Of a stretch of 64,000 bases of DNA, positions 13,677 to 62,236 are shown one piece after another (within the stretch, counting starts at the first letter, position 1; each line of letters starts with the position of its first letter). Made by a program: the position numbers and the translations under genes. The stretch comes from Candidatus Aenigmatarchaeota archaeon (GTDB taxonomy: Archaea; Aenigmatarchaeota; Aenigmatarchaeia; JACPZZ01). The notes under the pieces were generated by a model. The model saw only the letters and a list, made by a program, of their open reading frames with translations. It did no database searches and was not told the DNA's origin. Location: positions 89,128-153,127 of the forward strand of contig JAZDLW010000021.1 of the NCBI GenBank assembly GCA_043801595.1. Reading direction: 5' to 3'.

Positions 13677-13771
13677 ATGCGGCGGCCGGGATTTGAACCC
13701 GGGTTGTGAGCTTGGAAGGCTCGCGTTTCCTGGACTTAAAAAAGTCTCTTACCAGGCTGGACCACCGCCGC
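13677..13771 (-). tRNA. tRNA, probably Gly (UCC), carrying a roughly 19-22 nt insertion at a non-canonical position between the D-arm and the anticodon stem
   Basis: Acceptor stem GCGGCGG/CCGCCGC. T-arm CCGGG-UUCAAAU-CCCGG. Anticodon hairpin GAGC-CUUCCAA-GCUC. Total length about 95 nt. The 6-nt GUCCAG is directly repeated around the insertion. Confidence 0.55.
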
Positions 13772-13882
13772 AATTTCTGGTTGAAACAGACATTGTCTGT
13801 TTCTATCTGCTTATGCGCCAGCCAGCAACTGCATCCATTTCGATCTATTTACTATCCTTTTCTTTTTAAGAATTGATTGTTT

Positions 13883-14360: not shown

Positions 14361-14523
14361 TGGGATTGCAGGGATTTGAACCCTGATTGGCTGGTATCTT
14401 CAAAATCATCGGCTTGCGCCTCGTATCTCCAACAATAGACCGAAACAGATGCAATTTTGTATGGCATCTGTTTCTGTTTGCCGCTCTGGAGCCAGCTGTC
14501 TTACCTGATTAGACCACAATCCC
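14361..14523 (-). tRNA. tRNA-Trp (CCA) with a roughly 90-nt intron at the canonical 37/38 position
   Basis: 5' exon GGGAUUG-UG-GUC..GAC-A-GCUGG-CUCCAG, 3' exon A-CCAGC-CAAU-CAGGG-UUCAAAU-CCCUG-CAAUCCC-A. The intron contains an 8-bp hairpin (ACAGAUGC/GCAUCUGU) and a GAUGA element. Confidence 0.75.
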
Positions 14524-15020: not shown

Positions 15021-15092
15021 AAGCCCCAAGTGAGGATTGAACTCACGACCTACAGTTTACGAAACTGTCGCTCTACCACTGAGCTATTGAGG
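15021..15092 (-). tRNA. tRNA-Thr (CGU)
   Basis: GCCUCAA-UA-GCUCAGUGGUAGAGCG-A-CAGUU-UUCGUAA-ACUGU-AGGUC-GUGAG-UUCAAUC-CUCAC-UUGGGGC-U. Confidence 0.85.
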
Positions 15093-15209
15093 CAATTGTT
15101 GGTTTGCATACATCACGGATGTATGTCGATTTACCACTCATTTCTTATTACGATATTCTTTCCTTTTAATTCCTGTCATCTTTAAATTGTTCCTAAGATA
15201 ACCAAAATC

Positions 15210-30046: not shown

Positions 30047-32062
30047 TTATTTGCTTGTAAATATATACCTCAGAACGAGTATCGCGGCTATTGCAAGGAT
30101 TATTCCCACAACCACAATGCCCCTGTTGCCGCTGCCGGATGGCAATGTCGTGGTTGTCGCGATGGTTGTTGTGGTTGTCGTCGGTCCCACGATGCTTGCT
30201 GTGAAATCTATGCTGGCCGGTATCCCCTTTTCGGATATTGCTATCACGGTTGTGCTGTAGTTTCCCAATCTTGTGCCAAATGGCGGAGCGATGAACAGAT
30301 AAATCTTTCCGGTTTCATTCGGAGCCAACGTGATGTTGCCTACGCCCACGGATATCCATGACGGCCCTATAGCCTGAAGCATGTAATTCAGCGTTTTTAT
30401 GCCCGTGTTCCTTAACTGAATCTCCTGCAGGTTCCTGTCCAAAGGATTTATCGATTTTTCAACATCCTTTGGTGTGAATGAACTGCCGTAGCATGATTTA
30501 GGATCCGAAACGACCAGCGCAGCGGTTGATTTTAATTCCACGTTATCGGATTTCGCGGCTATTGCAATGCCGTATATGCCGCTCTCATTGCTGTAGTTGG
30601 CAACAAAGTCCACGCTCTTGTTGGCGTTGGGCTGCAGCAAAAGATTGTTCGCGATCATTTTGCCGGCTGCGAACAACGCAAATGTCTCGGTTTTTAATCC
30701 GGTGTTTTTAAGCACAAGCGTGAAGCTAGCCCTGTCCGGCGCGCAGACATTAAGCGATGGCGGTATGACCTGCATCTCGGCGCTGTGGCACACAGGGACA
30801 TTAAGCGTAAATTTCGCATCTTTTTTCAGGGAGCCTGCTGCGACGCTCACAGTTGCATCATAAGTCTTGTTTTCAGCGAACCCTGTCGTATTGATCGTGA
30901 GATGAATATCAACGGAATTTCCGGGCACCAGCGTAACCTTGCTCACATCCAGACCGCCCAGATTCGACGTGAGATTGTACGTATCGGTTATTGTGCCAAG
31001 GTTCCTGACATTTACCGGGAAAACAAACGTCTCGCCCTTGCATACCGAACCCGACGCCAATGCCGACGTAATGCCTATTGCACCGCACTCGGTCACGTTC
31101 GATTCGGCGGATATTTTCTTTACAAAATCGCTGCCCACCGATTTAACACCGATGCCAAGCTTGAATTTTTCAACAGTGTCATGCGTATATATGATTTTGA
31201 ATGTTTCATTTTCCGAAGCATTGATGGCCAGCTGCGTCTGCTCAGAGCCTGCGCTTATCAAATACACATCGGGTTTTGTGCCAGTGTTCTTTACAACAAG
31301 TTCGAATGACGACGGACTTCTAATGCATGCCGGAATAACAGGATTTACGAACGCGTCAAACGTAAAACACTCCTTTACGTTCACGTCCATCGATGCTTCT
31401 GCTGCTGCGAACGAATCAGGCGATGTTGCAAAGAACCTGATTTTATTTGCCGAGACATTGGCGTAATATGTTTCGAAATTGACAATGGCAGACTGTCCGG
31501 CTGCGAGTTTCAATGTGGGATTATCAAATTTTCCAGCAGCGTCCGAAGATAGATTAAACGTTTCGGTCACACGACCGATGTTTTTAACTACGATTGTTGT
31601 GGAGAATTTGTCGCGCGCGCATGTTTTTGCGGAGCCCTGGGCAGCCAGCGAAACGGCATTGCAGGCTAGTACATCCACGTTGATCTTGGCCGCCAAATTA
31701 TCCGCCGAAGACAATGAGTTTGCTTTTATCGTAACACCGTACTTTTGGACAATTGTATCGTTGAAGGGATTGAAAAAAACAGAACACAGCGCCGACTCGC
31801 CAGATGCGAGAACAACCTCGTCGTTGCTTATGCTTCCTTTGTTGCATCCTGCGAACGTTGTTAAATCAGCGTCGGAAGTAAGCTTGTATGTGTCTGTCAC
31901 AGGTCCGACGTTCGTTATCCTAACGAGCTGGTTCGTGAAAGATAATTTACAAACGCCCATATCACTGATCGTGGGCTCTACGCTGACGCGGCTTGCCTGG
32001 GCTTGCACGGAAAATACTACAAAAAACAGGAAAGAAGCTGCGAATAAAAACTCTCTCCTCAT
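30047..32062 (-). CDS. Secreted cell-surface protein with repeated beta-sandwich domains, a C-terminal poly-Thr stalk and a TM anchor
   Basis: Signal peptide, repeated about 100-aa modules (NTG/NIG..T.TY.L motifs), C-terminal PTTTTTTIATTTTLPSGSG followed by a hydrophobic helix and a basic tail. Confidence 0.6.
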   Translation of the reverse strand: MRREFLFAASFLFFVVFSVQAQASRVSVEPTISDMGVCKLSFTNQLVRITNVGPVTDTYKLTSDADLTTFAGCNKGSISNDEVVLASGESALCSVFFNPFNDTIVQKYGVTIKANSLSSADNLAAKINVDVLACNAVSLAAQGSAKTCARDKFSTTIVVKNIGRVTETFNLSSDAAGKFDNPTLKLAAGQSAIVNFETYYANVSANKIRFFATSPDSFAAAEASMDVNVKECFTFDAFVNPVIPACIRSPSSFELVVKNTGTKPDVYLISAGSEQTQLAINASENETFKIIYTHDTVEKFKLGIGVKSVGSDFVKKISAESNVTECGAIGITSALASGSVCKGETFVFPVNVRNLGTITDTYNLTSNLGGLDVSKVTLVPGNSVDIHLTINTTGFAENKTYDATVSVAAGSLKKDAKFTLNVPVCHSAEMQVIPPSLNVCAPDRASFTLVLKNTGLKTETFALFAAGKMIANNLLLQPNANKSVDFVANYSNESGIYGIAIAAKSDNVELKSTAALVVSDPKSCYGSSFTPKDVEKSINPLDRNLQEIQLRNTGIKTLNYMLQAIGPSWISVGVGNITLAPNETGKIYLFIAPPFGTRLGNYSTTVIAISEKGIPASIDFTASIVGPTTTTTTIATTTTLPSGSGNRGIVVVGIILAIAAILVLRYIFTSK

Positions 32063-37538: not shown

Positions 37539-38366
37539 ATGAATTATATCGTTTATGTGAATGATATGGCAAAACTCACCTTCTTGGGAACCGGTGGCGG
37601 AAGGTTTTGCATGGCCACCCAAACGCGCGCAACCGGCGGATTCCGGTTGGAAATGGACGGAACAAACTTTCACATTGATCCCGGGCCTGGTGCGCTTGTA
37701 AGGGCAAAACAATACAATGTGGATGTCAAGAACACTGACGTTATCATGCTATCGCACGTGCATATCGACCATTCAAACGATTGTAATGCCATCATAGACG
37801 CAATGACAGAAGGCACGAAAGGCCAAAAAGGCATGCTCGTCGGCAATATTTCTTCGATCAAAGGCTACGACAACAACAGCCCGGCAGTGCTGAAAATCTA
37901 CCTGAAAACACTGGAAAGCGTCAACGTGCTGAAGGCGGACGAAACGATAAACCTAAAAAACATAATTGTCAGGGCAACACCCACCAAGCACTCAGACCCT
38001 ACGGCAATCGGGTTCAGGATAGAAGGCTCAAAGGTGATATCGTACACTTCGGATACGGAATACTTTCCGGAACTGAAAAAATATCATAAAAACGCCGACG
38101 TACTGGTAATAAACACGCTGCGACCAGATAATGACGAGTGGCCGCTTCACATGAACACGGATGACGCAATAAAACTTATAGTAGATGCGGAGCCGAAACT
38201 TTGCATCTTTCAACACTTCGGAATGAAGATGATAAGTGCTGGTCCTGAAAAACAGGCCAGAAAGGCGAGCAAGGAAACCGGCGTAAAGGTAATCGCCGCA
38301 GAAGACGGAATGAAAATAGACCTTGACAGGATTGACGCATCGTTGAGCAAGTACATACGCAAATAA
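37539..38366 (+). CDS. Metallo-beta-lactamase-fold hydrolase (RNase Z/ElaC-related superfamily)
   Basis: LTFLGTGGG...HIDPGPG...SHVHIDHSND (HxHxDH). The start is likely at the internal MAKLTF. Confidence 0.55.
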   Translation: MNYIVYVNDMAKLTFLGTGGGRFCMATQTRATGGFRLEMDGTNFHIDPGPGALVRAKQYNVDVKNTDVIMLSHVHIDHSNDCNAIIDAMTEGTKGQKGMLVGNISSIKGYDNNSPAVLKIYLKTLESVNVLKADETINLKNIIVRATPTKHSDPTAIGFRIEGSKVISYTSDTEYFPELKKYHKNADVLVINTLRPDNDEWPLHMNTDDAIKLIVDAEPKLCIFQHFGMKMISAGPEKQARKASKETGVKVIAAEDGMKIDLDRIDASLSKYIRK

Positions 38367-38497: not shown

Positions 38498-40918
38498 ATG
38501 GACATTCCCAAAAGATACGACCCAAACGTCTCAGGAAAAAAGTGGCAGGACTACTGGAAAGAGAAAGGCGTTTACAGCTTTGACAAGAACAATACCGAAA
38601 AAACTTTTGTAATAGACACGCCGCCGCCTTTCACGTCTGGCGTGCCGCATATGGGGCACGTATTGTGGTGGACTTGGAACGACATAATCGCAAGATTCAA
38701 ACGAATGAATGGCTTCAACGTCCTTCTCCCGCAGGGCTGGGACTGCCACGGCTTGCCGACAGAGTTGAAAGTCGAGAAGGACTACAAGATCAAAAAAGCC
38801 GACAAAGTAAAGTTTATCGAAGCGTGCAAAGAATGGACAAGGACTTGCATCGACAGTATGAAAAAATACATGACCGATATAGGATATTCGGCAGACTGGA
38901 ATTACGAATATACCACCGATTCTCCGGAATATGTCAGTTTTGTCCAAAAAACGCTTGTCAACCTTTTCAATAAAAATCTGATCGAACGCGTCGAGCATCC
39001 GATAATGTGGTGCACCAAATGCGCAACGACCCTCGCCAAAGCTGAGGTTGGCTATGTCGAGCGTGACGGTGTATTATATTATATAAAACTCGGCACAGAG
39101 AACGGAGGGAAAATAACCATAGCGACGACAAGACCAGAGATGATGGCAGCCTGTATTGCGATTTTCGTGAATCCTGGCGATGAAGCGTACAAAGATTTTA
39201 TAGGAAAAAGCGCAAAGATCCCAATCTTCGGGCAGGAGGTCAAGATTATGGCCAATCCGGATGTTGATATGGAGTTTGGAACAGGAGCCGTATACCTTTG
39301 CACATACGGGGATGAAATGGATATAAAATGGCAGAAAAAATACAACCTGCCCGCAATAAACCTGATAAACCAATACGGAAAACTCAACAGCAACGCAAAA
39401 CAGTTCGAAGGCATGAAAATTACTGATGCGAGAATAAAGATTATCGAAGAACTGGGAATGCTCGGCCTTGTGGAAAAGGAGGAGAAATTCAAACATAACG
39501 TGCTCTCGCACACGGAAAGGACAGCGTGCCTTAACCCGATAGAATTCATACCAATGAAACAATGGTCGATAAAGGTAAAAGAAAGTTCGGACGCAATATT
39601 GAAACTATCCGACGAGATTGACTGGCACCCCGATCATATGAAAATAAGGCTCGAAAACTGGGTAAAATCAATGGATTGGGACTGGATATTCTCGCGGCAA
39701 CGGGTCTATGGAACGCCGATACCTTTTTGGTATTGCACAAAATGCGACAAAATATATCCCACTGAAACGTTTCCAGTAGATACGTCGCTGGAAAAATACA
39801 AGACAGACAAATGCGAGTGCGGCGGGGACATTTCAGGCGAAAAAGACGTGTGCGATGGCTGGGTTGATTCCTCGATAACGCCTCTGATAGTATCCGGTTA
39901 CTGGAAAAACGATAAAATCTACGAAAAACTTTATCCGTGCGACCTGAGACAACAGGGACACGACATAATCAGGACATGGGCTTACTACACAACGCTGAGA
40001 TGTTTTTTTGAAACGGGCAAAAAACCGTGGAATAGCATACTGATAAACAGCCTTATACTGGGGCCGGATGGCCGGGAGATGCACAAATCACTTGGCAACG
40101 TTGTTCTACCGGATGACGTATTGTTAAAGCACGGCGCTGACACTCTGCGAACAGGACTTGTGATGCTCGGCCTGTATTCAGGAGATGCTGCGTTTAACTG
40201 GCAGAACATGGAGTTTGCGTACAAATTCTCGACAAAATTCTGGAACGTGTTCCGTTTTTTCGTGTCGAACGCGGAAGGCTTCGAAAAATCGGAGATAACA
40301 TCGCAGATGGACAAATGGATACTCTCGAAAATGAACAGGAGTATAAAAGAGATAACCGAGAATATGGAAAATTTCCAGTTTGCGTACGCATTCGAACTTT
40401 TGCACGATTTCATATGGCACGAGATTGCGGACAACTATCTGGAATTCGTAAAGTACAGGCTTTACAACAACATCGAAAAATCGTCGGCGCAGACAACGCT
40501 TTGCCTTATAATGTTAAACATGATAAAGATGCTCGCGCCATTCATGCCGCATATAACGGAAGAAATGTACCAGCTGTACTTCAGGAATTTTGAAGGCGCG
40601 GAAAGCGTGCACAAGCTGGCATGGCCAATCGTCGACGAAAAAGTAATAGACGAAAATGTGGAAAAGTCGGGTGAGATGGCAAAATCCATCATATCGGCAA
40701 TAAGAAAATTCAAGACTTCGAACTCGATGCCGCTGAACGCCGAAATAAAGCAGCTAATAATCGAGTGCGAAGAATCAGATCTGGTTCACGTCGCAAAGAT
40801 GCTAAAAGACATAAAAGGTGTCATGAACATAAAGGACGTGAGACTCGGAACAATACTCGAAGGCGAAAAAATAATAAATGTGGAAGAAATAAAATCCAGG
40901 CTACTTGTTATTGTTTAA
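38498..40918 (+). CDS. valS: Class I aminoacyl-tRNA synthetase of the Val/Ile/Leu family, most likely valyl-tRNA synthetase
   Basis: PPPFTSGVPHMGHVL (HIGH reads HMGH), GWDCHGLP, the editing domain, and MHKSLGN (KMSKS-like). Confidence 0.7.
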   Translation: MDIPKRYDPNVSGKKWQDYWKEKGVYSFDKNNTEKTFVIDTPPPFTSGVPHMGHVLWWTWNDIIARFKRMNGFNVLLPQGWDCHGLPTELKVEKDYKIKKADKVKFIEACKEWTRTCIDSMKKYMTDIGYSADWNYEYTTDSPEYVSFVQKTLVNLFNKNLIERVEHPIMWCTKCATTLAKAEVGYVERDGVLYYIKLGTENGGKITIATTRPEMMAACIAIFVNPGDEAYKDFIGKSAKIPIFGQEVKIMANPDVDMEFGTGAVYLCTYGDEMDIKWQKKYNLPAINLINQYGKLNSNAKQFEGMKITDARIKIIEELGMLGLVEKEEKFKHNVLSHTERTACLNPIEFIPMKQWSIKVKESSDAILKLSDEIDWHPDHMKIRLENWVKSMDWDWIFSRQRVYGTPIPFWYCTKCDKIYPTETFPVDTSLEKYKTDKCECGGDISGEKDVCDGWVDSSITPLIVSGYWKNDKIYEKLYPCDLRQQGHDIIRTWAYYTTLRCFFETGKKPWNSILINSLILGPDGREMHKSLGNVVLPDDVLLKHGADTLRTGLVMLGLYSGDAAFNWQNMEFAYKFSTKFWNVFRFFVSNAEGFEKSEITSQMDKWILSKMNRSIKEITENMENFQFAYAFELLHDFIWHEIADNYLEFVKYRLYNNIEKSSAQTTLCLIMLNMIKMLAPFMPHITEEMYQLYFRNFEGAESVHKLAWPIVDEKVIDENVEKSGEMAKSIISAIRKFKTSNSMPLNAEIKQLIIECEESDLVHVAKMLKDIKGVMNIKDVRLGTILEGEKIINVEEIKSRLLVIV

Positions 40919-41404: not shown

Positions 41405-42619
41405 ATGGTCGATGAAACAAAAGTTATAGAACTGAAGAAACTGATACGTTTCCTTAAAAAGATCAGAGGAAGACATACAGAACTCGTTACAGTTTACGTC
41501 CCGACAGGATACAGCCTCCTCGAGATAATAAACCAGCTCAAAGCTGAGGGTTCGACAACGCAGAACATAAAATCAAAATCGACCAGAAACAACGTACTGT
41601 CCGCATTAGACAAGATTATCCAACATTTGAGGATTTACAGGGAGACCCCAGAACACGGTTTGGCAATATTCGCCGGGAATGTTTCCGAGAGCGAGGGTGC
41701 GCCGAAAATAGACATATGGGCGATCGAGCCGCCGGGGAAGGTCTACAATAAACTTTACTGGTGTGACCAGCAATTCGTTGTCGAACCGCTGGAAGAGATG
41801 ATAAAAGACAAGGAAATTTACGGATTAATCACGGTTGACAAATCCGAGGCTACGGTTGGGTATTTAATCGGCAAAAAAATAGTCGTGTTCAAACACACAG
41901 ATTCCATAGTTCCGAGCAAAACCGCAGCCGGAGGATGGTCGCAAGCGCGCTATTCGCGCATACGCGCCGGATTGTTAAACGACTTTCTCAAGGAGGTCTC
42001 CGATATCGCGACGCAGGCTTTCCTCGGCAAAAAAGAATTGATCGGTGTAATACTGGGCGGGCCAGGGCCTGTTAAAGACGATTTCTACAAGGACGGGTAT
42101 CTTCATTACGAGCTTCAGAAAAAAGTAATGGGAGTTGTCGACATATCTTACACAAACGAGCCGGGATTGTACGAACTCGTCAACAGGGCAGATAAAATCC
42201 TTTCGCAGGCGGCTGTCACAAAAGAAATAGAACTGCTCAAAGGTTTCCTGACCGAACTGCAGAAAGACTCGGGTCTCGCGGTCTATGGCTGGACGAAGAC
42301 CAATGCCGCGCTACAAGCTGGCATGCTGCAAAAATTGATAATATCCGAAGATTTTGACTGGATAAGAACGAAATTAAAGTGCGGCAGCTGCGGAAGCGAG
42401 GACACGCGCGATTTCAAGCCGACGGAAAAACAGTTTTGCCCAAACTGCAAAATGGAAATGAGGACCGTTAACACGGAAGATCTTATAGACGTTGCTGTGG
42501 ATATCGCAGAACAATTCGGAACCGCGTTCTACATTGTCTCGTCGAGTACAAGAGAAGGCGCACAATTCAAGGAGCTTGGGGGAATAGGCGGAATACTCAG
42601 GTACAAAATGACTTTCTAA
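41405..42619 (+). CDS. prf1: Peptide chain release factor aRF1 orthologue with a GGW motif in place of GGQ and a CxxC...CxxC mini-domain
   Basis: NIKS (TTQNIKSKSTRN) and YxCxxxF (YWCDQQF) are intact. Domain 2 aligns with eRF1 without gaps, but GGQSALRFARLR is GGWSQARYSRIR here (codon TGG at 41936-41938). The C-terminus GGIGGILRY matches eRF1. Confidence 0.8.
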   Translation: MVDETKVIELKKLIRFLKKIRGRHTELVTVYVPTGYSLLEIINQLKAEGSTTQNIKSKSTRNNVLSALDKIIQHLRIYRETPEHGLAIFAGNVSESEGAPKIDIWAIEPPGKVYNKLYWCDQQFVVEPLEEMIKDKEIYGLITVDKSEATVGYLIGKKIVVFKHTDSIVPSKTAAGGWSQARYSRIRAGLLNDFLKEVSDIATQAFLGKKELIGVILGGPGPVKDDFYKDGYLHYELQKKVMGVVDISYTNEPGLYELVNRADKILSQAAVTKEIELLKGFLTELQKDSGLAVYGWTKTNAALQAGMLQKLIISEDFDWIRTKLKCGSCGSEDTRDFKPTEKQFCPNCKMEMRTVNTEDLIDVAVDIAEQFGTAFYIVSSSTREGAQFKELGGIGGILRYKMTF

Positions 42620-42627
42620 AAACCGAT

Positions 42628-43212
42628 TCATCGCTTGTACGACAAGCGCTCATCAAAGAATCTGACAGAAACAAGCGTTTCAATATTATACGATTTGTTG
42701 TCAAGCTCTGTCAATAAGGCCGAGTAATACGCAGGAAGTCCGTCGCGTTTGCCTGAAAATTTCACGCCGTTCCTTTCGCGGCCCTCGGAAAATCTCCTCA
42801 AAAGCTGTTCTTTAGTCCCATAGCCGAGATTTTGGAGCGTCTCCAAGGATTTTCCGTTATCTACAGCCGCGCATTCGAACACTGTTCTGCGATCCTTTAC
42901 CAAGAACCAAAATCCCCTGATGTCGCCGTAATTGGGCGTCGAACCATTATCGAAAGGTGTGTTTGACTCATGAATAAGTTCGGGACGGGTTGAGTCGATT
43001 GCAAATAAACCGGAAGTTACGCAGCCCAAAACATTGTTGGAATTGTTTTCTATGTACGCTCCCAGTTCAGCGGTTGCGTCGGAAACGCCGTGCATGGAGA
43101 TGTGCTGGTGGTAAGATCTCATTGCACGGATTACGCGCGAATATCTTGTCAGATAATCAGATACCATATTCCTGGCATCCATAATGCACGTAACGCCAGT
43201 TTCATGAAACAT
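42628..43212 (-). CDS. Hypothetical protein (His-rich N-terminal region)
   Basis: Clean 194-aa ORF with a His-rich stretch (HQHISMH). I recognise no family. Confidence 0.45.
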   Translation of the reverse strand: MFHETGVTCIMDARNMVSDYLTRYSRVIRAMRSYHQHISMHGVSDATAELGAYIENNSNNVLGCVTSGLFAIDSTRPELIHESNTPFDNGSTPNYGDIRGFWFLVKDRRTVFECAAVDNGKSLETLQNLGYGTKEQLLRRFSEGRERNGVKFSGKRDGLPAYYSALLTELDNKSYNIETLVSVRFFDERLSYKR

Positions 43213-43765: not shown

Positions 43766-44539
43766 TTATACCGTTTTCGGCCTGATGGGCAGATTAAACG
43801 CCTTTATCGCGTTTTCAGTGGTAATACGGTCGACTTCGTCGAATTCTACGCCCCGCGCAGATGCGATCGACTCAATGACATATTTCACGTTCTGAGGAAT
43901 GTTAGTCTCGCCATGCGACGGACTAAGGAACGGCGAATCCGTTTCCGTTAGGATCAGTTCTATAGGAACCTCTTTAGCGAGGCGAACGTGCTTTTTAGAC
44001 CTCACAATCAGCGTTGGTATTGAAACGAACCACTTGTTGACTACAACCGTGTCTACCAACTGCGGCGACCCGAAACAGTGCAATATGACATCCTTTGCGC
44101 CCTGCTCCTCCAGAATCTTTGCAGCCTCGCCGTTGTCTTCTCGGGCGTGTATCACCAGTGGTTTCCTTATTTCCTTCGCAAGCTCTATAAAAACGGCGAA
44201 CACGTCTCTGCACTTTTTTCTATCAGCGTCCATTTTAACGTGAAAATTGTCTATGCCGACCTCTCCTACTGCAACGATATTGTCCCTGTTCGACCGTACA
44301 AAGTTCGCGTAATCGTCGATCTGTTTTTCGTCCAGATTTATGATATCTTCCGGATGCAGGCCTAAGCACGAAAAAACAAATCCGGGATACTTTCTTGCAA
44401 GCGCCAACGATTTTTCCGAGTTTTCTATGGACGGCGCGCTGTCTATGATCGCGGTCATCGTCTTTTTCGATTCTTCGACGATCCTGTCGCGTTTGTTGTC
44501 AAAGTCTGGAAAAGACAGATGGCAATGAGCGTCGATCAT
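43766..44539 (-). CDS. tatD: TatD-family metal-dependent hydrolase/DNase
   Basis: IDAHCHL...GLHP...GEVGID...HAR...HCFG...ETDSPFL. Confidence 0.9.
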   Translation of the reverse strand: MIDAHCHLSFPDFDNKRDRIVEESKKTMTAIIDSAPSIENSEKSLALARKYPGFVFSCLGLHPEDIINLDEKQIDDYANFVRSNRDNIVAVGEVGIDNFHVKMDADRKKCRDVFAVFIELAKEIRKPLVIHAREDNGEAAKILEEQGAKDVILHCFGSPQLVDTVVVNKWFVSIPTLIVRSKKHVRLAKEVPIELILTETDSPFLSPSHGETNIPQNVKYVIESIASARGVEFDEVDRITTENAIKAFNLPIRPKTV

Positions 44540-44543
44540 ATTT

Positions 44544-45146
44544 TCAATCCTGATCCATTTTTACGGATAACATTACCCTGTAACCGCTGTGCCTGTTTAT
44601 ATCGGTTTCATTGCCGAATTTTTCTCTCATTCGTTTTGCTATTGATTTTGCACCCTGGTTTGTCCTTGCAACCAAAAACAGCTTTCCGCCTTTTGCGAGA
44701 TGCGATTTTGCGCCTTCGATTATCTTAATCGTGATATTTTTTCCAGCCCTTATTGGCGGATTGCATACGACTTTGTCGAATCCAGCGCCTTTTACATTTT
44801 CGTAAAGGTCGCTTTCGATAACCGAGATGTTGTCCAGGTTGTTGAGTTTCACGTTTGTTTTCGAAAATTCAACAGCCCGCTCGTTGACATCGGTCATAAT
44901 CACGCTGTCGGCCTGTTTTGCAAACACTATGCCGATGACACCGTAACCGCAGCCGATGTCTAGAATTTTGTCGCCTTTGTTAATACGGACCGATTCTACC
45001 AAAAGCATCGTGCCTTTATCCACACGATCCTTTGAAAAGATGCCACTGGTTGTCGCGAATTTGTATGTTGCGCCGTTGATCAGCGCAGTGATAATCTTAA
45101 CAGGGCCTTTCGAGCATGGCGATTTTGTAAAGTAGTGCTCAGGCAT
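44544..45146 (-). CDS. Small-domain class I SAM methyltransferase (MJ0882/RsmC-like)
   Basis: ILDIGCGYGVIG (motif I) and VVCNPPI (motif IV). Confidence 0.7.
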   Translation of the reverse strand: MPEHYFTKSPCSKGPVKIITALINGATYKFATTSGIFSKDRVDKGTMLLVESVRINKGDKILDIGCGYGVIGIVFAKQADSVIMTDVNERAVEFSKTNVKLNNLDNISVIESDLYENVKGAGFDKVVCNPPIRAGKNITIKIIEGAKSHLAKGGKLFLVARTNQGAKSIAKRMREKFGNETDINRHSGYRVMLSVKMDQD

Positions 45147-45184: not shown

Positions 45185-48100
45185 ATGAAAAACACGGCTG
45201 TAATTGCCGGACTGCTGTCGCTTCTTCTCATTGCAACCGCTGCGTACGCAAATGTGAACGAAAATAAAGCACTGCAAAAAATGGAGCGCGGGCTTGTTGC
45301 GAAACTTGCAGAACCGGGCGAGGAAAACGAAAAGGTCATAGTGTGGATCGAACCGGGAAAGATGAACGCGGCAATTGCGGCGAGTTTCGGGAATGTAAAA
45401 CAGGAGTTTTCGATAATACCCGCGATTGCGATGGATGTTCCTAAATCGAAATTAAAAAGTCTCGCTTCGCTCGGATTTGTCAAGAAAATATCAATAGACC
45501 ACAAGATTTTCGCATTAAGGAACAACGCGATACCGATCACAGCATCAGATGTTGCAATGAATACGTACGGGTATAACGGGACGAACATCAAAATCGCGAT
45601 AATAGACACGGGAATTTACAATCATTCGGAATTCCAGACCCCGAACAGGATAGTGCTACAGAAATGCTTTACGTTGGGGGCGTGCCCGCCGAATAATGCG
45701 AACACGAGCAACAACGCAACCGATGATTACGGGCACGGAACGCACGTTGCAGGCATAGCTGCGGGCGAAGGATCCGCATCGTACGGACGAGGTTCTGCCC
45801 CGAATGCCACGATAATAGCTATAAAGGTGCTCGATTCGTCCGGAAGCGGATGGGACAGTGATGTCATATCCGGAATGCAATTCGCAGTCGACAACGGCGC
45901 GAACATAATTTCGATGAGTCTGGGTGCCTATATCACAGGCGATTGCTACGATGATTCAGGCACGTCTTTGGCTGTGGACAATGCCACAAACATGGGTGTT
46001 GTTGTAGTAATTGCGGCTGGCAACAATGGAACTTTTTCATCCTCGATAGCAGCACCGGGTTGCGCGAAAACAGCCATAACCGTCGGCGCGACTGCTAAAA
46101 CTGATGCGATAGCGTCGTACAGCTCGATCGGGCCGACAAACGATAACCGCACAAAACCGGACATAGTGGTAACCGGAGGTTCGGGTGCGACATGTCCGGG
46201 AACGATGATAATATCAACTTATCCGACAAACCTCGCATCAAGCGGTTATGTCTGCGAATCCGGAACCTCGATGGCAACGCCGCTCGTGTCCGGAATCGCG
46301 GCAATGCTGATGGAAAAATACAACGCAACGCACGGATACATGCCAGTGCCGGGGCTTGTAAAGGCGATTCTGCTCAATTCTGTTAACACATCAGGAATGT
46401 CAACGGACGGCTATACGCAGCGCAATAACGTATACGGCGCGGGCAGATTAGATGCTTATGGTGTCCTGAACAATTCCGACAATGCAAATAATTATTCGAT
46501 AACCCAAAATGCGCAAAACGTTCATAGGATACACGTTTCTTCGTCCTCGTTAAAGGTAACGCTCGTATGGATGGAAAATTCCACGACAAGAAACAACCTT
46601 GACCTGATTGTCGGTAATGGTACGAACAATTTCACAAATCCGACCGATGCAAACGATACTGTTGAACAGGTTTTTCTGCAAAACATAAACAACGGAACGT
46701 GGAACGTATACGTGAAAGGAACTTCGGTAGCGGGAACGCAGGAATATTTCATTGCGTATCCGTCAACCGCAATATTTCCCAGTTTTTCCAGCAACAATAC
46801 GGGAAAAAATTCTGGAATGCAATACGCGCCAAATGAAAATTACAGTTTCGGAATAAATGTCAACGGATCATTATCTGTTGACGAGGTTTCAGCTGTGATT
46901 TTTCAATTGAACAGTACAAACTACACGAAAAATTCCGCAGATCCTGTGTATAACAACAGCGCCGGAAATTTCTGGATAAACCTGACCGATCTATCCGCAG
47001 GCGCATACTCGTACCAGTGGTTTGCCAACAGCACGCAAAACAACTGGAACGCGACAAGCCCGCTGATATTCGTGATAGCAAAGAATTATTCAGCAAACCT
47101 GATCAATCTGACAATAAACAACACCAACAACGACGTTTCATCGCCCTACGATTATATGCTAAATATAACCGCATGGAAAAATTTCACCGAGGGAAACCTT
47201 ACATTGTACAGGAATGGTTCGATAGTAGGAACATCGGGAATAAACCAACCGAATGAAACAGTGTCGCTGGGCGGCGGCGTTTACAATTACACTGTTGTTC
47301 TCGAAGAAACACAAAACTACTCGTTCGTAAATATAACCAGAATGTTGACGGTTACGCAAACTCCGACAGGCATAACGCTTCTCCTTAACGGAAGCGCGGG
47401 AAATTACACGTATGATATCCGCACAACAGCCAACTTCACTGCGATTGTAAATATTTCGGGAAAGAACGTCACGCTGACATCGAATATGAGCGGATGGGTT
47501 GACCAGAACAATGTAAATATCACAGAAAACTTGACCATTTTAAACCAGATCGGAATATTCAACATAACCGCGTATTTCGCGGGTGACCAGAACTACTCCT
47601 ACTCATCACAAACGCTCTTCGCAACAGTTGTTGATGCGAACGCCCCAACGATACATGCGAATTATACCTCGCTCGACAGCGGAATAGAATATTATCCCGG
47701 ACGATTTTATACATTCAATGTAAGCGTGCAGGACAACAACGTTGTATCCGCCGTGATATTGCAATTAAATTCCACAAACCGCACAGCATACCTCTATGAA
47801 GGCTCCATGTCCGAAGGAAACTGGTCGGCAAATGTAACGGATATTGCCGCGAGTGAAACAGGTTATCCAATCGTCTGGTACGCAAACGACACTTCAAATA
47901 ACTGGAACAGGACGGATGTATGGTATTACGTCATAAACAAAAATTCTTCCGCGTATACAGTTATAGCAGCGAACAATACAACAATAGAAATTCCGCGGTC
48001 ATGGTCTGTTAATTCGACATCACCTATCAGCGCGAAAATAGAGACGAGATTGTATTCCAACGAATCTGGAAGTATGCTTCTTTTAAACAGCTCTACCGGA

Positions 48101-49387
48101 ACGAACAGATATTCGGGCAGCGCATTTCCGCCGAACATTGTGAACATATCGTCCAATTCGTCGTCGAATGAAAATTATACAGCCAACTCGACGCTAGAAA
48201 GCACGGTCATCAGGTTCGTTGACACGGCGAACCCCGCATTGGCAGAAGGATTGGTGCTGCCGCGAACGGTTGAAACACAGAATAACATAACAATGCTGAT
48301 CGTCGCTGACGATTACAGTGCAATTTTGGCAGTTGCGAACATATACAACTCGACCAATTCGAGCATCGCAAGATTCGGTCTTTATTACGTGACGAATACC
48401 ACGGCAAACGTTTCTTACCTAAACCGTACCACATGGTTATATTCGTTCAACGTAACATCGATGCCGACAGGCAACTTTTTCGCAAACGTTTCTCTAACCG
48501 ATGTCTGGGGCAACGCAGCAAACTATTCACTGGGAAACTTCACAGTAACAAACGGGTCTGCGGGAACAATGTACAGCAATTCCTCAATTCAAATCAGGAA
48601 TAACATAGAAGTGGATCTTTTGTCAGCGATGAACGTGTCGCTCAATATAAGTTCGACTTCAAACTCAGGCCAAGATGCGATCGCGCTGGCTACATATTTC
48701 ACGAACCCGTCGAACCAGAACAACAACGCTGTTACGATAAACAAGTTTACGGAAATTTCAGTCGGAGGTTTGTTGAATTACACACTAAACTGGGTCGTTA
48801 TACGAATAAATTATAATTCTTCGGATATTCAGTCGGGATACGGCGAAAACAACCTGAGAATATATTACAACCACCCAAATGGAACATGGATCGTGTACGA
48901 CGGCACGCTGCTCGGCGGCGTCAACACGACCGAAAAATATGTGTGGGCAAACTCCACACATTTCAGCCTTTACGGCGTGTTCGTAATGCCTACATGTTCG
49001 GACAGTATACAGAACCAAGGAGAAACGGGTGTAGATTGCGGCGGACCCTGTTCGGCGTGCGCCTCCACTCCGCCCGCAAATACGCCAGGCAGTATCGGAG
49101 GTTCAACCGCAACGACAACTACGACTACAACGACGACAACTATTGCAACGACTACCACAACTTCGACCACAACGACTACCACGACAATGACTGCGACTAC
49201 GATCACAACACAAAATAAAACCGCCGACACGATCGAAAGCGAACCAGCGAAAAAACAGGACAACGACTTTGTGATTGTTGTGTTGTTGTCTCTGATAGCG
49301 ATAATTACCGCTGCCGTGATTTACAAAAACAGGAAAAGATTAGGCTACATCCTGTACAATATCAAAAAGAATTCAAGCCTGGAATAA
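45185..49387 (+). CDS. Giant subtilisin-like (S8) serine protease: signal peptide, I9 propeptide, catalytic domain, long N-glycosylation-rich repeat region, poly-Thr stalk and TM anchor
   Basis: Catalytic triad contexts AIIDTGI (Asp), HGTHVAGIAAG (His), GTSMATP (Ser). The C-terminus TTTTTTTTTIATTTTTSTTTTTT is followed by a hydrophobic helix and KNRKR. Confidence 0.9.
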   Translation: MKNTAVIAGLLSLLLIATAAYANVNENKALQKMERGLVAKLAEPGEENEKVIVWIEPGKMNAAIAASFGNVKQEFSIIPAIAMDVPKSKLKSLASLGFVKKISIDHKIFALRNNAIPITASDVAMNTYGYNGTNIKIAIIDTGIYNHSEFQTPNRIVLQKCFTLGACPPNNANTSNNATDDYGHGTHVAGIAAGEGSASYGRGSAPNATIIAIKVLDSSGSGWDSDVISGMQFAVDNGANIISMSLGAYITGDCYDDSGTSLAVDNATNMGVVVVIAAGNNGTFSSSIAAPGCAKTAITVGATAKTDAIASYSSIGPTNDNRTKPDIVVTGGSGATCPGTMIISTYPTNLASSGYVCESGTSMATPLVSGIAAMLMEKYNATHGYMPVPGLVKAILLNSVNTSGMSTDGYTQRNNVYGAGRLDAYGVLNNSDNANNYSITQNAQNVHRIHVSSSSLKVTLVWMENSTTRNNLDLIVGNGTNNFTNPTDANDTVEQVFLQNINNGTWNVYVKGTSVAGTQEYFIAYPSTAIFPSFSSNNTGKNSGMQYAPNENYSFGINVNGSLSVDEVSAVIFQLNSTNYTKNSADPVYNNSAGNFWINLTDLSAGAYSYQWFANSTQNNWNATSPLIFVIAKNYSANLINLTINNTNNDVSSPYDYMLNITAWKNFTEGNLTLYRNGSIVGTSGINQPNETVSLGGGVYNYTVVLEETQNYSFVNITRMLTVTQTPTGITLLLNGSAGNYTYDIRTTANFTAIVNISGKNVTLTSNMSGWVDQNNVNITENLTILNQIGIFNITAYFAGDQNYSYSSQTLFATVVDANAPTIHANYTSLDSGIEYYPGRFYTFNVSVQDNNVVSAVILQLNSTNRTAYLYEGSMSEGNWSANVTDIAASETGYPIVWYANDTSNNWNRTDVWYYVINKNSSAYTVIAANNTTIEIPRSWSVNSTSPISAKIETRLYSNESGSMLLLNSSTGTNRYSGSAFPPNIVNISSNSSSNENYTANSTLESTVIRFVDTANPALAEGLVLPRTVETQNNITMLIVADDYSAILAVANIYNSTNSSIARFGLYYVTNTTANVSYLNRTTWLYSFNVTSMPTGNFFANVSLTDVWGNAANYSLGNFTVTNGSAGTMYSNSSIQIRNNIEVDLLSAMNVSLNISSTSNSGQDAIALATYFTNPSNQNNNAVTINKFTEISVGGLLNYTLNWVVIRINYNSSDIQSGYGENNLRIYYNHPNGTWIVYDGTLLGGVNTTEKYVWANSTHFSLYGVFVMPTCSDSIQNQGETGVDCGGPCSACASTPPANTPGSIGGSTATTTTTTTTTTIATTTTTSTTTTTTTMTATTITTQNKTADTIESEPAKKQDNDFVIVVLLSLIAIITAAVIYKNRKRLGYILYNIKKNSSLE

Positions 49388-52006: not shown

Positions 52007-52112
52007 GGTAGATAGGGCCCATAGCTCAATCTGGTAGAGCACCTGACTCTTAAACGAATCAAATGATTCGCTGGGATATCAGGGTGTTGCGAGTTCAAAT
52101 CTCGCTGGGCCC
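52007..52112 (+). tRNA. tRNA-Lys (CUU) with a roughly 25-nt canonical-position intron
   Basis: GGGCCCA-UA-GCUC..GAGC-A-CCUGA-CUCUUA|intron|A-UCAGG-GUGUU-GCGAG-UUCAAAU-CUCGC-UGGGCCC-A. The intron hairpin is CGAAUC/GAUUCG. Confidence 0.8.
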
Positions 52113-52157
52113 ACTCTGCTTTCCTGCCGAAGGCTATTAATAACTAACTGTCAAATT

Positions 52158-54306: not shown

Positions 54307-56934
54307 ATGAATAACTCCACGAAACCGCGGACGTTTTTACTCGTTGTTCTGTTTGTGTTTATTTTAGCGTCTTCTTTTACCTTTGCGCAGAACCAAACCA
54401 CGACAACCTCAACAACGACAACCAGTACTACTACAGAGCCGACAACAACGACGACTACCACACCCACTACAACAACTACGACGCCGACGACAACGACAAC
54501 CAGCACGACTACAATTGCACCAACAACTACGACGACAACGACTACTACTACGACCACGTTAGACAAAACCTCTCCGATTATAGGAAAAGTATCGCCCGTG
54601 GCTGTGACCCATAAAAAACAGGCGACATTTATTACCATCGCATCCGATAATGTCGGGGTTTCTTCGTGCACTTTTGAAATCGAGACCAGAGCCACAGCTG
54701 TCAAACTCTCTTTCGCAGCCGCATACTCTAACGGTGCAGCCAGCTATGTGCATCCTGGCTTGCAGGCGGGTACATATTCCGCGTACTTCACTTGCAAAGA
54801 CACTGCCGGAAACAATGCATCTGGGGAGACAACCGCAATAACCAGTGAAAAATCACAGCTGAAAGCCGCGCTTACACTAGAAAAAGAAAACTTCTACCCA
54901 AAGGACAGCGTGGAATCCAGAATAAAAGTTACCGATGTGGACGGCAAGATAATCACCGATGCAACGATAGAGGCGTCCATGGCTGGGCCCACGAACAAAG
55001 GCCGCCAGTATTTCTATTATTCTACGCTCTGTGACTGCTACAAGGCTTGGACGTGGTTCAGCGAAAGCGACTCGTTGGGAGATTACGAACTGAAAATTAC
55101 CGTGAAACACAGCGATTATGACAATGCCACCCTGTCCAAGACTGTGAAACTGCTAAAGCCTGTTTTAAATCTTGTGATGAAAAGTGACAAGACCGAGTAC
55201 AACCCCAGCGATTCCATACAACTGGAGATTGCAGCTACTGACAAAGAAGGCAATTCTGTAACCGATGCCTATCTGACAGGTGATATAAGGGACGCATCCA
55301 CAGGGGCTTTGGTTTCCACGATCTACCCATGGAAAAAGGAGTCCAAATATGTCTATTCATACTGGGTGAGCGCTGACAGTCTTGGCAAGAGTTTAATCAT
55401 AACCGTTCAGGCCAGCTGGAAAGAGCAAAAATCCAATTCAACTTTAACGATTTCTATTACAAAAAGAGGCCTTAATGCGGACGTTGTTTTGGAAAAGGAT
55501 GTTTTGATACCGGGTGACAATCTGAACGGCAAGGTCAAGGTGTTTGACAAGGACGGCAACACAATATCTGATGCGATTGTGAGCGCCGAGCTGTACGATG
55601 AAAACGGGAATTACCAGAGATACATAAGCGCCAAGTATGAAGACGGTTTCTATTATCTGGATCCGTACAAAATCCAGGAATGGGCCCAAATGGGAGAATA
55701 CAAGCTCAAGATGAAGATATCGAAAGGCACCGAATCCATAACAGTGGAAAAGAAGATTACAATACAAAAGGAAAAGCTGAACGTAGAGATAAATTTCGAC
55801 GAGCCCAGTTACAGGCCGGGTGACAGGATGTACCTGCAGATCTTGGTTACGAAACCGGACGGTTCCGTTGTCCAAGACGCGTTTGTAAGCGGAAACATAT
55901 TTCCATTGAACCAAGAAACTAGAAAAATAGAAGGATACGAGGGTACACCTCAGGTCTGCAGATTATATGTGTCGCCAAAAGGGCCTATCTACTACAAAGG
56001 TGACTTTGTGCAGAAATATTATGTTGAAGACGTGTACATATCCGACTGGTGTCCGACAGGCAAATATGTTTTGGAATTAAGCGTTGGCAAAGGCGGCTAT
56101 GCTGATGCCAAGATAACAAAGGAGTTTGATGTCAACCTCGGAAGCATAAGCTTGGAATCCGGCTTCAAGATATCCACGCAAGGCGGCAAGTCCAACCTTG
56201 ACATTTATGCGGAAGCGAAAGACAGCAAAGGGAAGATTGTGCAAAACGCCGAGATAAAAGGCTTCCTGCACCCCCTGAATGGGACAGGCTGTTTGAAAGA
56301 GTTGCAATTCTGGTTTGACACATCGTTGAGCAGGCACAGGAGCAGTACGTTCTTATCCAAGTCCGAATGCCCGGAAGGGGATTACACGCTTGAGTTGAAG
56401 GCTTCTTCCAGATCGTTTGAAACTGCCAATATCACCAAAGTGGTCGAAATAAAATACGAAAAGGGTTATGAACACGATGTGTTTGTGCCTGCCGCTTCCG
56501 GGACTCCTGCAGGAGCGTGCAAGGAAGTTTCCTGCGGGCCTAACTGCGTCCAAACCGTTTGCGGAACTCCTACACCAACAATCAGCGAACCAAAAGTCGT
56601 TGATAAAGCGTGCCTGCAGAAATGCGAAAACACTGTTAATGACCTAGAGAAGGAAAGCCTCGGCCAGTCTTCGACATCATTAGAGAACTGCATCCAGTCA
56701 TGCTATGTGACAAAGCAAACTGAGGCAACAATAAAACCGTCTGACATCGAGGCAATGAAATCCAAGCTGGAACAAATTCAAATAGACGTGTCCGAGACAA
56801 AAGAGAAAGTCGGCGCCATAGAAAATTTGCTAAAAGCAATACTCGCTTTCGTAAGGTCGTTCTTAGGCAGCACTTTCCTTACGGCAGCGCCCAGCTCAGG
56901 CATAACAGTGAATACGACCGCTGCGATCGGGTAA
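54307..56934 (+). CDS. Secreted cell-surface protein: signal peptide, 80-aa poly-Thr/Pro linker, repeated Ig-like domains, Cys-rich region, coiled coil and a hydrophobic C-terminus
   Basis: TTTSTTTTSTTTEPTTTTTTTPTTTTTTPTTTTTS... near the N-terminus. Repeated KVxDxDGKxIxDAxI modules. Confidence 0.65.
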   Translation: MNNSTKPRTFLLVVLFVFILASSFTFAQNQTTTTSTTTTSTTTEPTTTTTTTPTTTTTTPTTTTTSTTTIAPTTTTTTTTTTTTLDKTSPIIGKVSPVAVTHKKQATFITIASDNVGVSSCTFEIETRATAVKLSFAAAYSNGAASYVHPGLQAGTYSAYFTCKDTAGNNASGETTAITSEKSQLKAALTLEKENFYPKDSVESRIKVTDVDGKIITDATIEASMAGPTNKGRQYFYYSTLCDCYKAWTWFSESDSLGDYELKITVKHSDYDNATLSKTVKLLKPVLNLVMKSDKTEYNPSDSIQLEIAATDKEGNSVTDAYLTGDIRDASTGALVSTIYPWKKESKYVYSYWVSADSLGKSLIITVQASWKEQKSNSTLTISITKRGLNADVVLEKDVLIPGDNLNGKVKVFDKDGNTISDAIVSAELYDENGNYQRYISAKYEDGFYYLDPYKIQEWAQMGEYKLKMKISKGTESITVEKKITIQKEKLNVEINFDEPSYRPGDRMYLQILVTKPDGSVVQDAFVSGNIFPLNQETRKIEGYEGTPQVCRLYVSPKGPIYYKGDFVQKYYVEDVYISDWCPTGKYVLELSVGKGGYADAKITKEFDVNLGSISLESGFKISTQGGKSNLDIYAEAKDSKGKIVQNAEIKGFLHPLNGTGCLKELQFWFDTSLSRHRSSTFLSKSECPEGDYTLELKASSRSFETANITKVVEIKYEKGYEHDVFVPAASGTPAGACKEVSCGPNCVQTVCGTPTPTISEPKVVDKACLQKCENTVNDLEKESLGQSSTSLENCIQSCYVTKQTEATIKPSDIEAMKSKLEQIQIDVSETKEKVGAIENLLKAILAFVRSFLGSTFLTAAPSSGITVNTTAAIG

Positions 56935-59202: not shown

Positions 59203-59325
59203 AGCAAAACGTGCCTTGGTGGCTCATCGGTAGAGCGTCCGACTCATAAGTTCATTATGAGTGACGAGCCTTAACGGCTGTGAAGTGGTATCGGAAGGTA
59301 GCGAGTTCAATTCTCGCCCAAGGCA
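59203..59325 (+). tRNA. tRNA with a CAU anticodon (elongator Met or Ile2) and a roughly 41-nt canonical-position intron
   Basis: GCCUUGG-UG-GCUC..GAGC-G-UCCGA-CUCAUA|intron|A-UCGGA-AGGUA-GCGAG-UUCAAUU-CUCGC-CCAAGGC-A. It is not an initiator tRNA: it lacks the three G-C pairs in the anticodon stem. Confidence 0.75.
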
Positions 59326-62162: not shown

Positions 62163-62236
62163 GCCTCCGTAGCTCAATTCGGCAGAGCGAGTGCTTTGTA
62201 AGCACTAGGTTGCGGGTTCAAATCCCACCGGAGGCT
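62163..62236 (+). tRNA. tRNA-Thr (UGU)
   Basis: GCCUCCG-UA-GCUCAAUUCGGCAGAGCG-AGUGC-UUUGUAA-GCACU-AGGUU-GCGGG-UUCAAAU-CCCAC-CGGAGGC-U. Confidence 0.85.

Follow-up and report, generated by a model that had tools for sequence, protein, structure and literature searches.

The tripeptide Gly-Gly-Gln (GGQ) has been described as universally conserved in the release factors aRF1 and eRF1 (PMC2613156) and in class-I release factors as a whole (PMC6144793, PMC5799190). It is cited as the only motif that these factors have in common across the three domains of life, in each of which dedicated enzymes methylate its Gln (PMC6144793, PMC2613156). The backbone amide of this Gln was proposed as the catalyst of hydrolysis in bacterial release factors (PMC6742477). 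Its side chain was assigned a packing role, in which the N5-methyl group contributes further van der Waals contacts with U2506, A2451 and A2452 (PMC5799190). A Gln mutant of human eRF1 keeps partial activity, to judge by the title of Seit-Nebi 2000 (cited in PMC2613156), and the human methyltransferase HEMK2 prefers a G-Q-X3-R context (PMC10804810). Among the homologous factors, the Vms1-like release factor families aVLRF1 and acVLRF1, which carry a GGxSQ motif, were predicted to be active hydrolases (Burroughs and Aravind 2019, PMC6514570), and the catalytic loops of Dom34 and of bacterial aRF1-like families without the Gln are degenerate and rich in indels (PMC6514570, PMC2613156). Here we describe an aRF1 gene at positions 41405..42619 (+ strand) of a 64,000-nucleotide stretch of contig JAZDLW010000021.1 from a Candidatus Aenigmatarchaeota archaeon of the small-genome DPANN group (hereafter the window), whose product has Trp in place of the Gln of GGQ. 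We are highly confident that the protein is a conserved, orthologous aRF1 with a GG[W/M/F]SQ motif. From the comparison of sequences, we also consider it fairly probable that the GGW protein is still a hydrolysing, peptide-releasing aRF1 with a remodelled catalytic loop.

The open reading frame (ORF) is intact and full length, encoding 404 residues followed by a stop codon, and it was identified by Pfam, NCBIfam, phmmer and a Foldseek search with an AlphaFold2 (AF2) model. At 448.5 bits, the protein was above the 234.7 bits required by the NCBIfam equivalog model TIGR03676 (aRF1_eRF1), and all three Pfam domains of the family scored above cutoff: eRF1_1, the N domain for stop-codon recognition (residues 11-133, 41435..41803, + strand), eRF1_2, the catalytic M domain (residues 139-267, 41819..42205, + strand, E = 1.6e-33), and eRF1_3, the C domain (residues 272-402, 42218..42610, + strand). 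Inside the N domain we located NIKS (residues 54-57, 41564-41575, + strand) and YWCDQQF, an instance of YxCxxxF (residues 118-124, 41756-41776, + strand), two stop-codon motifs that are almost invariant among 95 aligned homologues. The C domain holds a zinc-ribbon insert, CxxC...CxxC (C326-C348, 42380-42448, + strand), and the motif GGIGGILRY (residues 392-400, 42578-42604, + strand). An earlier sequence-only reading of this DNA had named the protein aRF1/eRF1 and had pointed to NIKS, YxCxxxF and GGIGGILRY; the family scores and the positions of the three motifs bear out both statements. The AF2 model, built from the alignment of 95 sequences, had a mean predicted local distance difference test score (pLDDT) of 89.3, and its best matches in the PDB were the aRF1 structure 4af1 (E = 6.7e-44) and the eRF1 structure 5lzt (template-modelling score, TM, 0.85). 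By sequence models, motifs and fold, the protein is a class-I release factor of the aRF1 type.

The deviation from this family lies in the M domain. The catalytic loop and the start of the following helix, PSKTAAGGWSQARYSRIR (residues 170-187, 41912..41965, + strand), were delimited by alignment and by the AF2 model, and there the tripeptide G176 G177 W178 (41930..41938, + strand; codons GGA GGA TGG) replaces GGQ. The W178 codon TGG occupies 41936-41938 (+ strand) and is followed by TCG and CAA for S179 and Q180, so that the loop reads GGWSQ at residues 176-180. Q180 (41942..41944, + strand) is a glutamine at position +2 that, across the alignments, co-occurs with the loss of Gln at 178. Aligned by phmmer with the aRF1 of Halobacterium (4af1) and with human eRF1, the protein shows no gap through the loop, and W178 falls on the Gln of GGQ, in agreement with the earlier claim of a GGW at the GGQ position in an ungapped domain 2. 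In the AF2 model, the loop comprises residues 167-177 with GG at its end, and W178 is the first residue of the next helix. Both glycines are kept and the Gln alone is replaced, so the protein lacks the GGQ that is expected of an aRF1/eRF1. Since its family models, domains, stop-codon motifs and fold are otherwise those of aRF1, we filed it as an aRF1 variant with an alternative catalytic motif, which founds no new family.

Such a motif could be an artefact of a sequencing or assembly error, of a pseudogene or of a non-standard reading of TGG, and nothing besides the oddity of the motif speaks for this. We searched a database of 5.8 billion sequences and examined the 120 nearest proteins, which are 49-96% identical to the query and, where named, come from Candidatus Aenigmarchaeota/Aenigmatarchaeota. 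At the position aligned with W178, GGW was found in 101, GGM in 16, GGF in one and GGQ in three. More widely, GG[W/M/F] occurs in 144 of 481 well-aligned aRF1 sequences, and the motif is shared by more than 140 distinct proteins from NCBI, JGI, ENA and Logan assemblies. Because GGW recurs in homologues from many independent assemblies, chance or sequencing error is excluded; the sequence-only reading had rightly called a simple sequencing error unlikely. The gene is under strong purifying selection, with a ratio of nonsynonymous to synonymous substitutions (dN/dS) of 0.059 at a dS of 0.39 relative to a 96%-identical relative (L021), which together with the conservation among homologues rules out a pseudogene as well. 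The TGG codon is fixed across four relatives, in which the adjoining Gly, Ser, Gln and Ala codons differ synonymously. Counted from residue 178, K(-6), G(-2), G(-1) and R(+4) do not vary among the 130 sequences of the Aenigmatarchaeota group, and S(+1) and R(+7) hardly vary.

A reassigned TGG was ruled out by the adjacent valyl-tRNA synthetase (ValRS) gene, where TGG codes for the conserved Trp of GWDCHGLP; recoding of TGG would also leave the Met (ATG) and Phe variants unexplained. Stop-codon reassignment was ruled out for the window, in which TAA, TGA and TAG close 33, 19 and 14 ORFs, respectively, at a coding density of 90% under the standard code. Given the more than 140 proteins with the motif, the low dN/dS and the full-length ORF, we regard an artefact of any kind as having a negligible probability.

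The genomic neighbourhood was compared among relatives with different motifs. By synteny, three neighbours of aRF1 are conserved: a ValRS-like class I aminoacyl-tRNA synthetase immediately upstream (38498..40918, + strand), a metallo-beta-lactamase-fold protein upstream of ValRS (37539..38366, + strand) and a TatD-family hydrolase downstream (43766..44539, - strand). The order ValRS, aRF1, zero to three genes and TatD was found around GGQ-, GGM- and GGW-type genes of different lineages, namely at five GGW-type loci (the window, L001, L006, L007 and L009), at the GGM-type locus L020 and at the GGQ-type loci L017 and L018; a further GGQ-type locus, L012, shows the aRF1-TatD side only. Where the upstream region was read, the metallo-beta-lactamase gene lies 5' of ValRS in the window, L001, L006-L009 and the GGQ-type locus L018. 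Across the loci, these neighbour genes are homologous at 30-40% identity. GGQ-, GGM- and GGW-type aRF1 genes fill one genomic slot in different lineages, and because this slot is common to the GGQ-type genes, the GGW aRF1 is a positional orthologue and probably not a side copy.

The number of copies was approached in several ways. A tblastn search of the 64-kb window found no second aRF1 and no Pelota. With the nearest GGQ-type protein, P0041, as the query, we retrieved a large Aenigmatarchaeota aRF1 family in which 117 of the 117 listed members have GGQ, mostly as GGQSS. Judged by size, no contig was common to the long GG[W/M/F] contigs (at least 100 kb each, 4.3 Mb in total, one of 1,105,251 bp) and the long contigs of the GGQ family (1.5 Mb). 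On the basis of synteny, the long contigs and the window, the GGW aRF1 is likely to be single-copy in its genome. Our trees were exclusively bootstrapped neighbour-joining trees with the motif columns masked, and in these the GGQ-type Aenigmatarchaeota family and the GG[W/M/F] group form one clade (87/100).

These results bear on the possibility that the GGW protein is a stop-codon reader without hydrolytic activity, which would bind the A site in stalling, rescue or hibernation in the manner of Pelota or Balon and would leave the release of the peptide to another enzyme. The canonical Gln is indeed missing, Balon structures were among the fold matches, the relatives without Gln, namely Dom34/Pelota, Balon and the majority of the bacterial aRF1-like families, do not catalyse hydrolysis (PMC6514570, PMC2613156), and a second factor could be encoded elsewhere, the window having been searched and the long contigs compared by length. 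However, the GGW gene sits in the slot that GGQ-type aRF1 occupies in sister lineages, the same holds in a second lineage described below, and no co-resident copy was seen in the window or on the long contigs. The loop is strongly conserved with both glycines, whereas the loops of the non-catalytic relatives are degenerate and variable in length, and all three stop codons terminate genes normally. The profile scores were also far below the cutoffs for such proteins, with 66.6 bits against 177.65 for the Pelota model TIGR00111, which matched the M and C domains only, and 19.8 bits against 320 for the Rv2629-family model NF052289. We therefore consider a non-hydrolysing reader quite unlikely. 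The sequence-only reading had offered two options, a mechanism without precedent or a Pelota-like factor that does not hydrolyse; positional orthology, the conserved loop and purifying selection lean against the second of these.

Comparison of the loops revealed a second change that accompanies the first. The GGQ-type sister family reads P-G-K-T-R-A-G-G-Q-S-S-A-R-F, and the Aenigmatarchaeota GG[W/M/F] group reads P-G-K-T-x-[K/A]-G-G-[W/M/F]-S-Q-A-R-Y. A second GGW clade consists of P0163 and seven relatives from NCBI, JGI, ENA and Logan assemblies with mutual identities of 60-66%, and all eight read P-S-K-H-T-K-G-G-W-S-Q-[R/K]-R-F (GGWSQ[KR]RFER). This clade has a bootstrap value of 100/100 and falls outside the Aenigmatarchaeota clade (87/100). 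Its nearest relatives, one of which is named Candidatus Diapherotrites, read P-[G/S]-K-H-R-A-G-G-Q-S-S-V-R-F (GGQSSVRFER), and TruD lies directly downstream of aRF1 in both a P0163-type GGW gene and a GGQ sister. Judged from the alignments and trees, the replacement of Gln by Trp at 178 together with that of Ser by Gln at +2 is an independent acquisition in the second clade. The two transitions share parallel changes in just two of the 406 alignment columns, 178 (Q to W) and 180 (S to Q), and the Arg at -4 disappeared in each transition. Tyr at +5 and Thr at -5, typical of the Aenigmatarchaeota GG[W/M/F] group, were ruled out as further coupled positions, as they are not repeated in the second lineage. 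The sequence-only reading had missed that the substitution is lineage-wide, independently recurrent and coupled to the gain of Gln at +2 (GGQSS to GGWSQ).

The coupling was also counted after clustering at 50% identity. Of the 106 representatives with GGQ, 20 have Gln at +2, compared with 87 of 112 with GGW, 19 of 20 with GGM and all four with GGF. Isolated representatives without the canonical Gln read GGWSQ (P0254, P0203, P0152), GGFSQ (P0146, P0154), GGASQ (P0251) and GGESQ (P0247), and two more, GGESA and GGSSA, have no Gln at +2; these isolated cases are mostly single sequences and are to be read with caution. Counted by lineage, 9 of 11 independent lineages lacking the canonical Gln have Gln at +2, against a background of 19% (binomial P about 1e-5). 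The coupled gain of the +2 Gln suggests a remodelled catalytic loop rather than a loss of function.

A different explanation for the same pattern is drift, in which the GGW protein would be a normally hydrolysing aRF1 and the residue after GG would be unimportant in these ribosomes, for example after the loss of the methyltransferase, so that neither W/M/F nor Gln180 would have a specific role. The literature that places catalysis on the backbone amide (PMC6742477) is compatible with this, as are the variety of residues at the position (W, M and F and, rarely and in one representative each time, E, A or S) and the absence of Q at +2 from some members. Yet the replacement set is narrow, comprising W, M and F, and stable across deep divergence. 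The change from Q to W takes two nucleotide substitutions, yet it arose on two or more occasions and was always accompanied there by S to Q at +2, and drift would not yield such parallel double changes. Leu is the obvious one-step hub linking the codons of Q, W, M and F. Neither Leu nor Arg, the one-step intermediates, was seen after GG among the 481 sequences. The recurrence and the missing Leu intermediate therefore point to selection for a specific alternative loop, and we consider drift unlikely.

If the GGW protein is a peptide-releasing aRF1 with a remodelled loop, its loop would have been rebuilt from ...R-A-G-G-Q-S-S... to ...x-[K/A]-G-G-[W/M/F]-S-Q..., and all three stop codons would most likely still be recognised. 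The backbone conformation of the two glycines is unusual and needed for entry into the peptidyl-transferase centre, and in the GGW factor they would still bring the loop there. The backbone NH of residue 178 and the rRNA would do the chemistry, as proposed for the Gln amide in bacterial release factors, and the bulky hydrophobic side chain of Trp, Met or Phe would take over the packing of N5-methyl-glutamine against U2506, A2451 and A2452. Gln180 may provide an amide whose hydrogen bonding helps to order the water. This division of labour between Trp178 and Gln180 is put forward tentatively, and we would give it somewhat less than an even chance. On balance, we lean slightly towards the general proposal that a second working release-factor active site, GG-[Trp/Met/Phe]-Ser-Gln, evolved at least twice, in which the supposedly universal Gln and its N5-methylation are dispensable, an aromatic or other hydrophobic residue anchors the loop within the A-site pocket of the peptidyl-transferase centre, and the amide was moved to +2 or dropped (GGWSAN, GGWSAS).

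Several points weigh against this proposal. Substitutions of the GGQ Gln are lethal or dominant-negative in vivo, both in yeast eRF1 and in the E. coli factors. Within the main clade, 25 of 130 members are secondarily GGWSAN or GGWSAS and have lost the Q at +2, so that Gln180 appears favoured and not strictly essential. A second hydrolysing factor, be it a GGQ paralogue, a bacterial-type release factor or an aVLRF1, may be encoded elsewhere in the genome. The monophyly of the GG[W/M/F] group has a bootstrap value of 17-34/100 in the neighbour-joining trees, too low to fix the number and direction of the changes within Aenigmatarchaeota.

The GG[W/M/F]SQ factor is probably unmethylated because Gln180 lies in the context S-Q-A-R and not G-Q-X3-R, and a GGW factor would need no methylation by Mtq2. 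In the search for Mtq2, no NPPY-type methyltransferase was found in 340 kb made up of the window and the fetched loci, whole genomes being outside the scope of this search. An MTS-family (small-domain, PF05175) S-adenosylmethionine-dependent methyltransferase with the motif CNPPIRAGK is encoded three genes downstream of aRF1 (44544-45146, - strand). We rejected it as an Mtq2 candidate, as it has NPPI instead of NPPY, scores 68 bits against 87 at the HemK2/MTQ2 cutoff and looks RsmC/MJ0882-like; its score is below the RsmC cutoff as well. The gene order aRF1, NYN, TatD and MTS is kept in the close relatives L001, L005, L006, L007 and L009.

Two observations concern aRF1 genes other than the one in the window. 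Many archaeal aRF1 genes contain an intein exactly between GG[Q/W/M/F] and the next Ser (GGW|C...HN|S), as exemplified by L007:4254-5585, L010:8525-10000 and P0112. The insert in L007 has 444 residues with intein-splicing, LAGLIDADG and HTH (helix-turn-helix) domains. An intein occupies this site in 54 of 150 representatives of clusters at 50% identity, GGQ-type and GG[W/M/F]-type alike, and the aRF1 gene of the window has none. One targeted full-text literature search returned no paper with an aRF1 intein at this site in its title. The other observation is P0256, an aRF1 that reads GGE where GGQ is expected (KHKAGGESARRFE) and that was deposited as WP_455278356.1 under the bacterium [Eubacterium] cellulosolvens. 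It is probably an archaeal contamination of a rumen assembly and may represent a further variant without the canonical Gln or a second paralogue.

Downstream of aRF1, an ORF of 194 residues starts 9 nt past the aRF1 stop codon on the opposite strand (42628-43212, - strand) and matches nothing in Pfam or NCBIfam. L021 conserves this ORF at 83% and L007 at about 30%, and it is absent from other relatives in which NYN comes directly after aRF1. Elsewhere in the window, three Rfam tRNA matches of 99-163 nt that were not called by ARAGORN, at 14361-14523 (- strand), 52015-52113 (+ strand) and 59213-59325 (+ strand), are probably intron-containing archaeal tRNAs. Conversely, a 96-nt tRNA-Thr(AGT) at 13677-13772 (- strand) was called by ARAGORN only and is not in the Rfam list; the window has several tRNA-Thr genes, including those at 15022-15093 (CGT) and 62163-62236 (TGT). 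A fused restriction-modification enzyme of the Eco57I/MmeI type with 1079 residues and NPPY at residue 647 is encoded at 3749-6988 (+ strand). Very large ORFs of 671-1400 residues with signal-peptide-like N termini are found at 45185-49387 (+ strand), 54307-56934 (+ strand), 17133-19511 (+ strand) and 30047-32062 (- strand). Features of this kind have often been described for the surface proteins of DPANN archaea.

The full-text literature searches, which cover few papers in subscription journals, found no description of the GGW-type variant, and aRF1 with GG[W/M/F] has apparently not been described before. The role of the Gln side chain of GGQ has been debated for 25 years, with water coordination, exclusion of nucleophiles and packing as the proposals. 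A natural, lineage-wide and convergent substitution of Trp, Met or Phe for this Gln, together with a Gln at +2 that compensates for it, offers a ready experimental system for this debate. Proteins of the eRF1 fold are often labelled non-catalytic for want of the Gln, and GG[W/M/F]SQ bears on functional assignments of this kind. The motif may also mark another route by which reduced DPANN genomes lose a modification enzyme. If our reading is true, these archaea terminate all of their proteins with a factor that, by the textbook, would count as catalytically dead.

Among the known systems, the canonical aRF1/eRF1 proteins (TIGR03676; 4af1, 5lzt) share with the GGW aRF1 the three-domain fold, NIKS, YxCxxxF, the zinc-ribbon insert and the GILRY C terminus. 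They also share the two glycines, S(+1), R(+4) and R(+7) of the loop, as well as the genomic slot. The GGW aRF1 differs from them by Trp (Met or Phe in relatives) instead of Gln, by Gln at +2 and by the lost Arg at -4. Pelota/Dom34 resembles it in having homologous M and C domains, in acting at the A site, in its delivery by an EF1-alpha-type GTPase and in lacking the canonical Gln. However, the N domain of Pelota is Sm-like and has neither NIKS nor YxCxxxF, and the Pelota loop is truncated and shows poor conservation (PMC2613156), whereas the GGW aRF1 has both motifs and a conserved loop of full length. Balon and the bacterial aRF1-like hibernation factors likewise combine the eRF1 fold with the absence of the catalytic Gln. 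They are bacterial, 12-17% identical to the GGW aRF1 and weaker structural matches to it.

The motif itself is formally shared by aVLRF1 and acVLRF1, which have GGxSQ in a homologous eRF1-type catalytic domain, as GGWSQ here (PMC6514570), and in which, as a precedent, the Gln predicted to be catalytic lies two residues past the GG-x position. Both are thought to be rescue factors, aVLRF1 lacking the Pelota-like C domain and acVLRF1 lacking the codon-recognition domain, whereas the GGW aRF1 is complete; it scored 50.4 bits with the acVLRF1 model NF041024, against a cutoff of 125. Finally, laboratory mutants of the Gln (human eRF1 Q185X and bacterial RF1/RF2) indicate that catalysis in vitro does not strictly depend on the side chain, that the backbone amide is the proposed catalytic group and that packing is the main role of the side chain and its methyl group (PMC5799190, PMC6742477 and, as far as its title in PMC2613156 tells, Seit-Nebi 2000). 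These mutants are engineered and impaired, whereas GGW is natural, fixed across entire lineages and recurrent, and comes with a second-site change.

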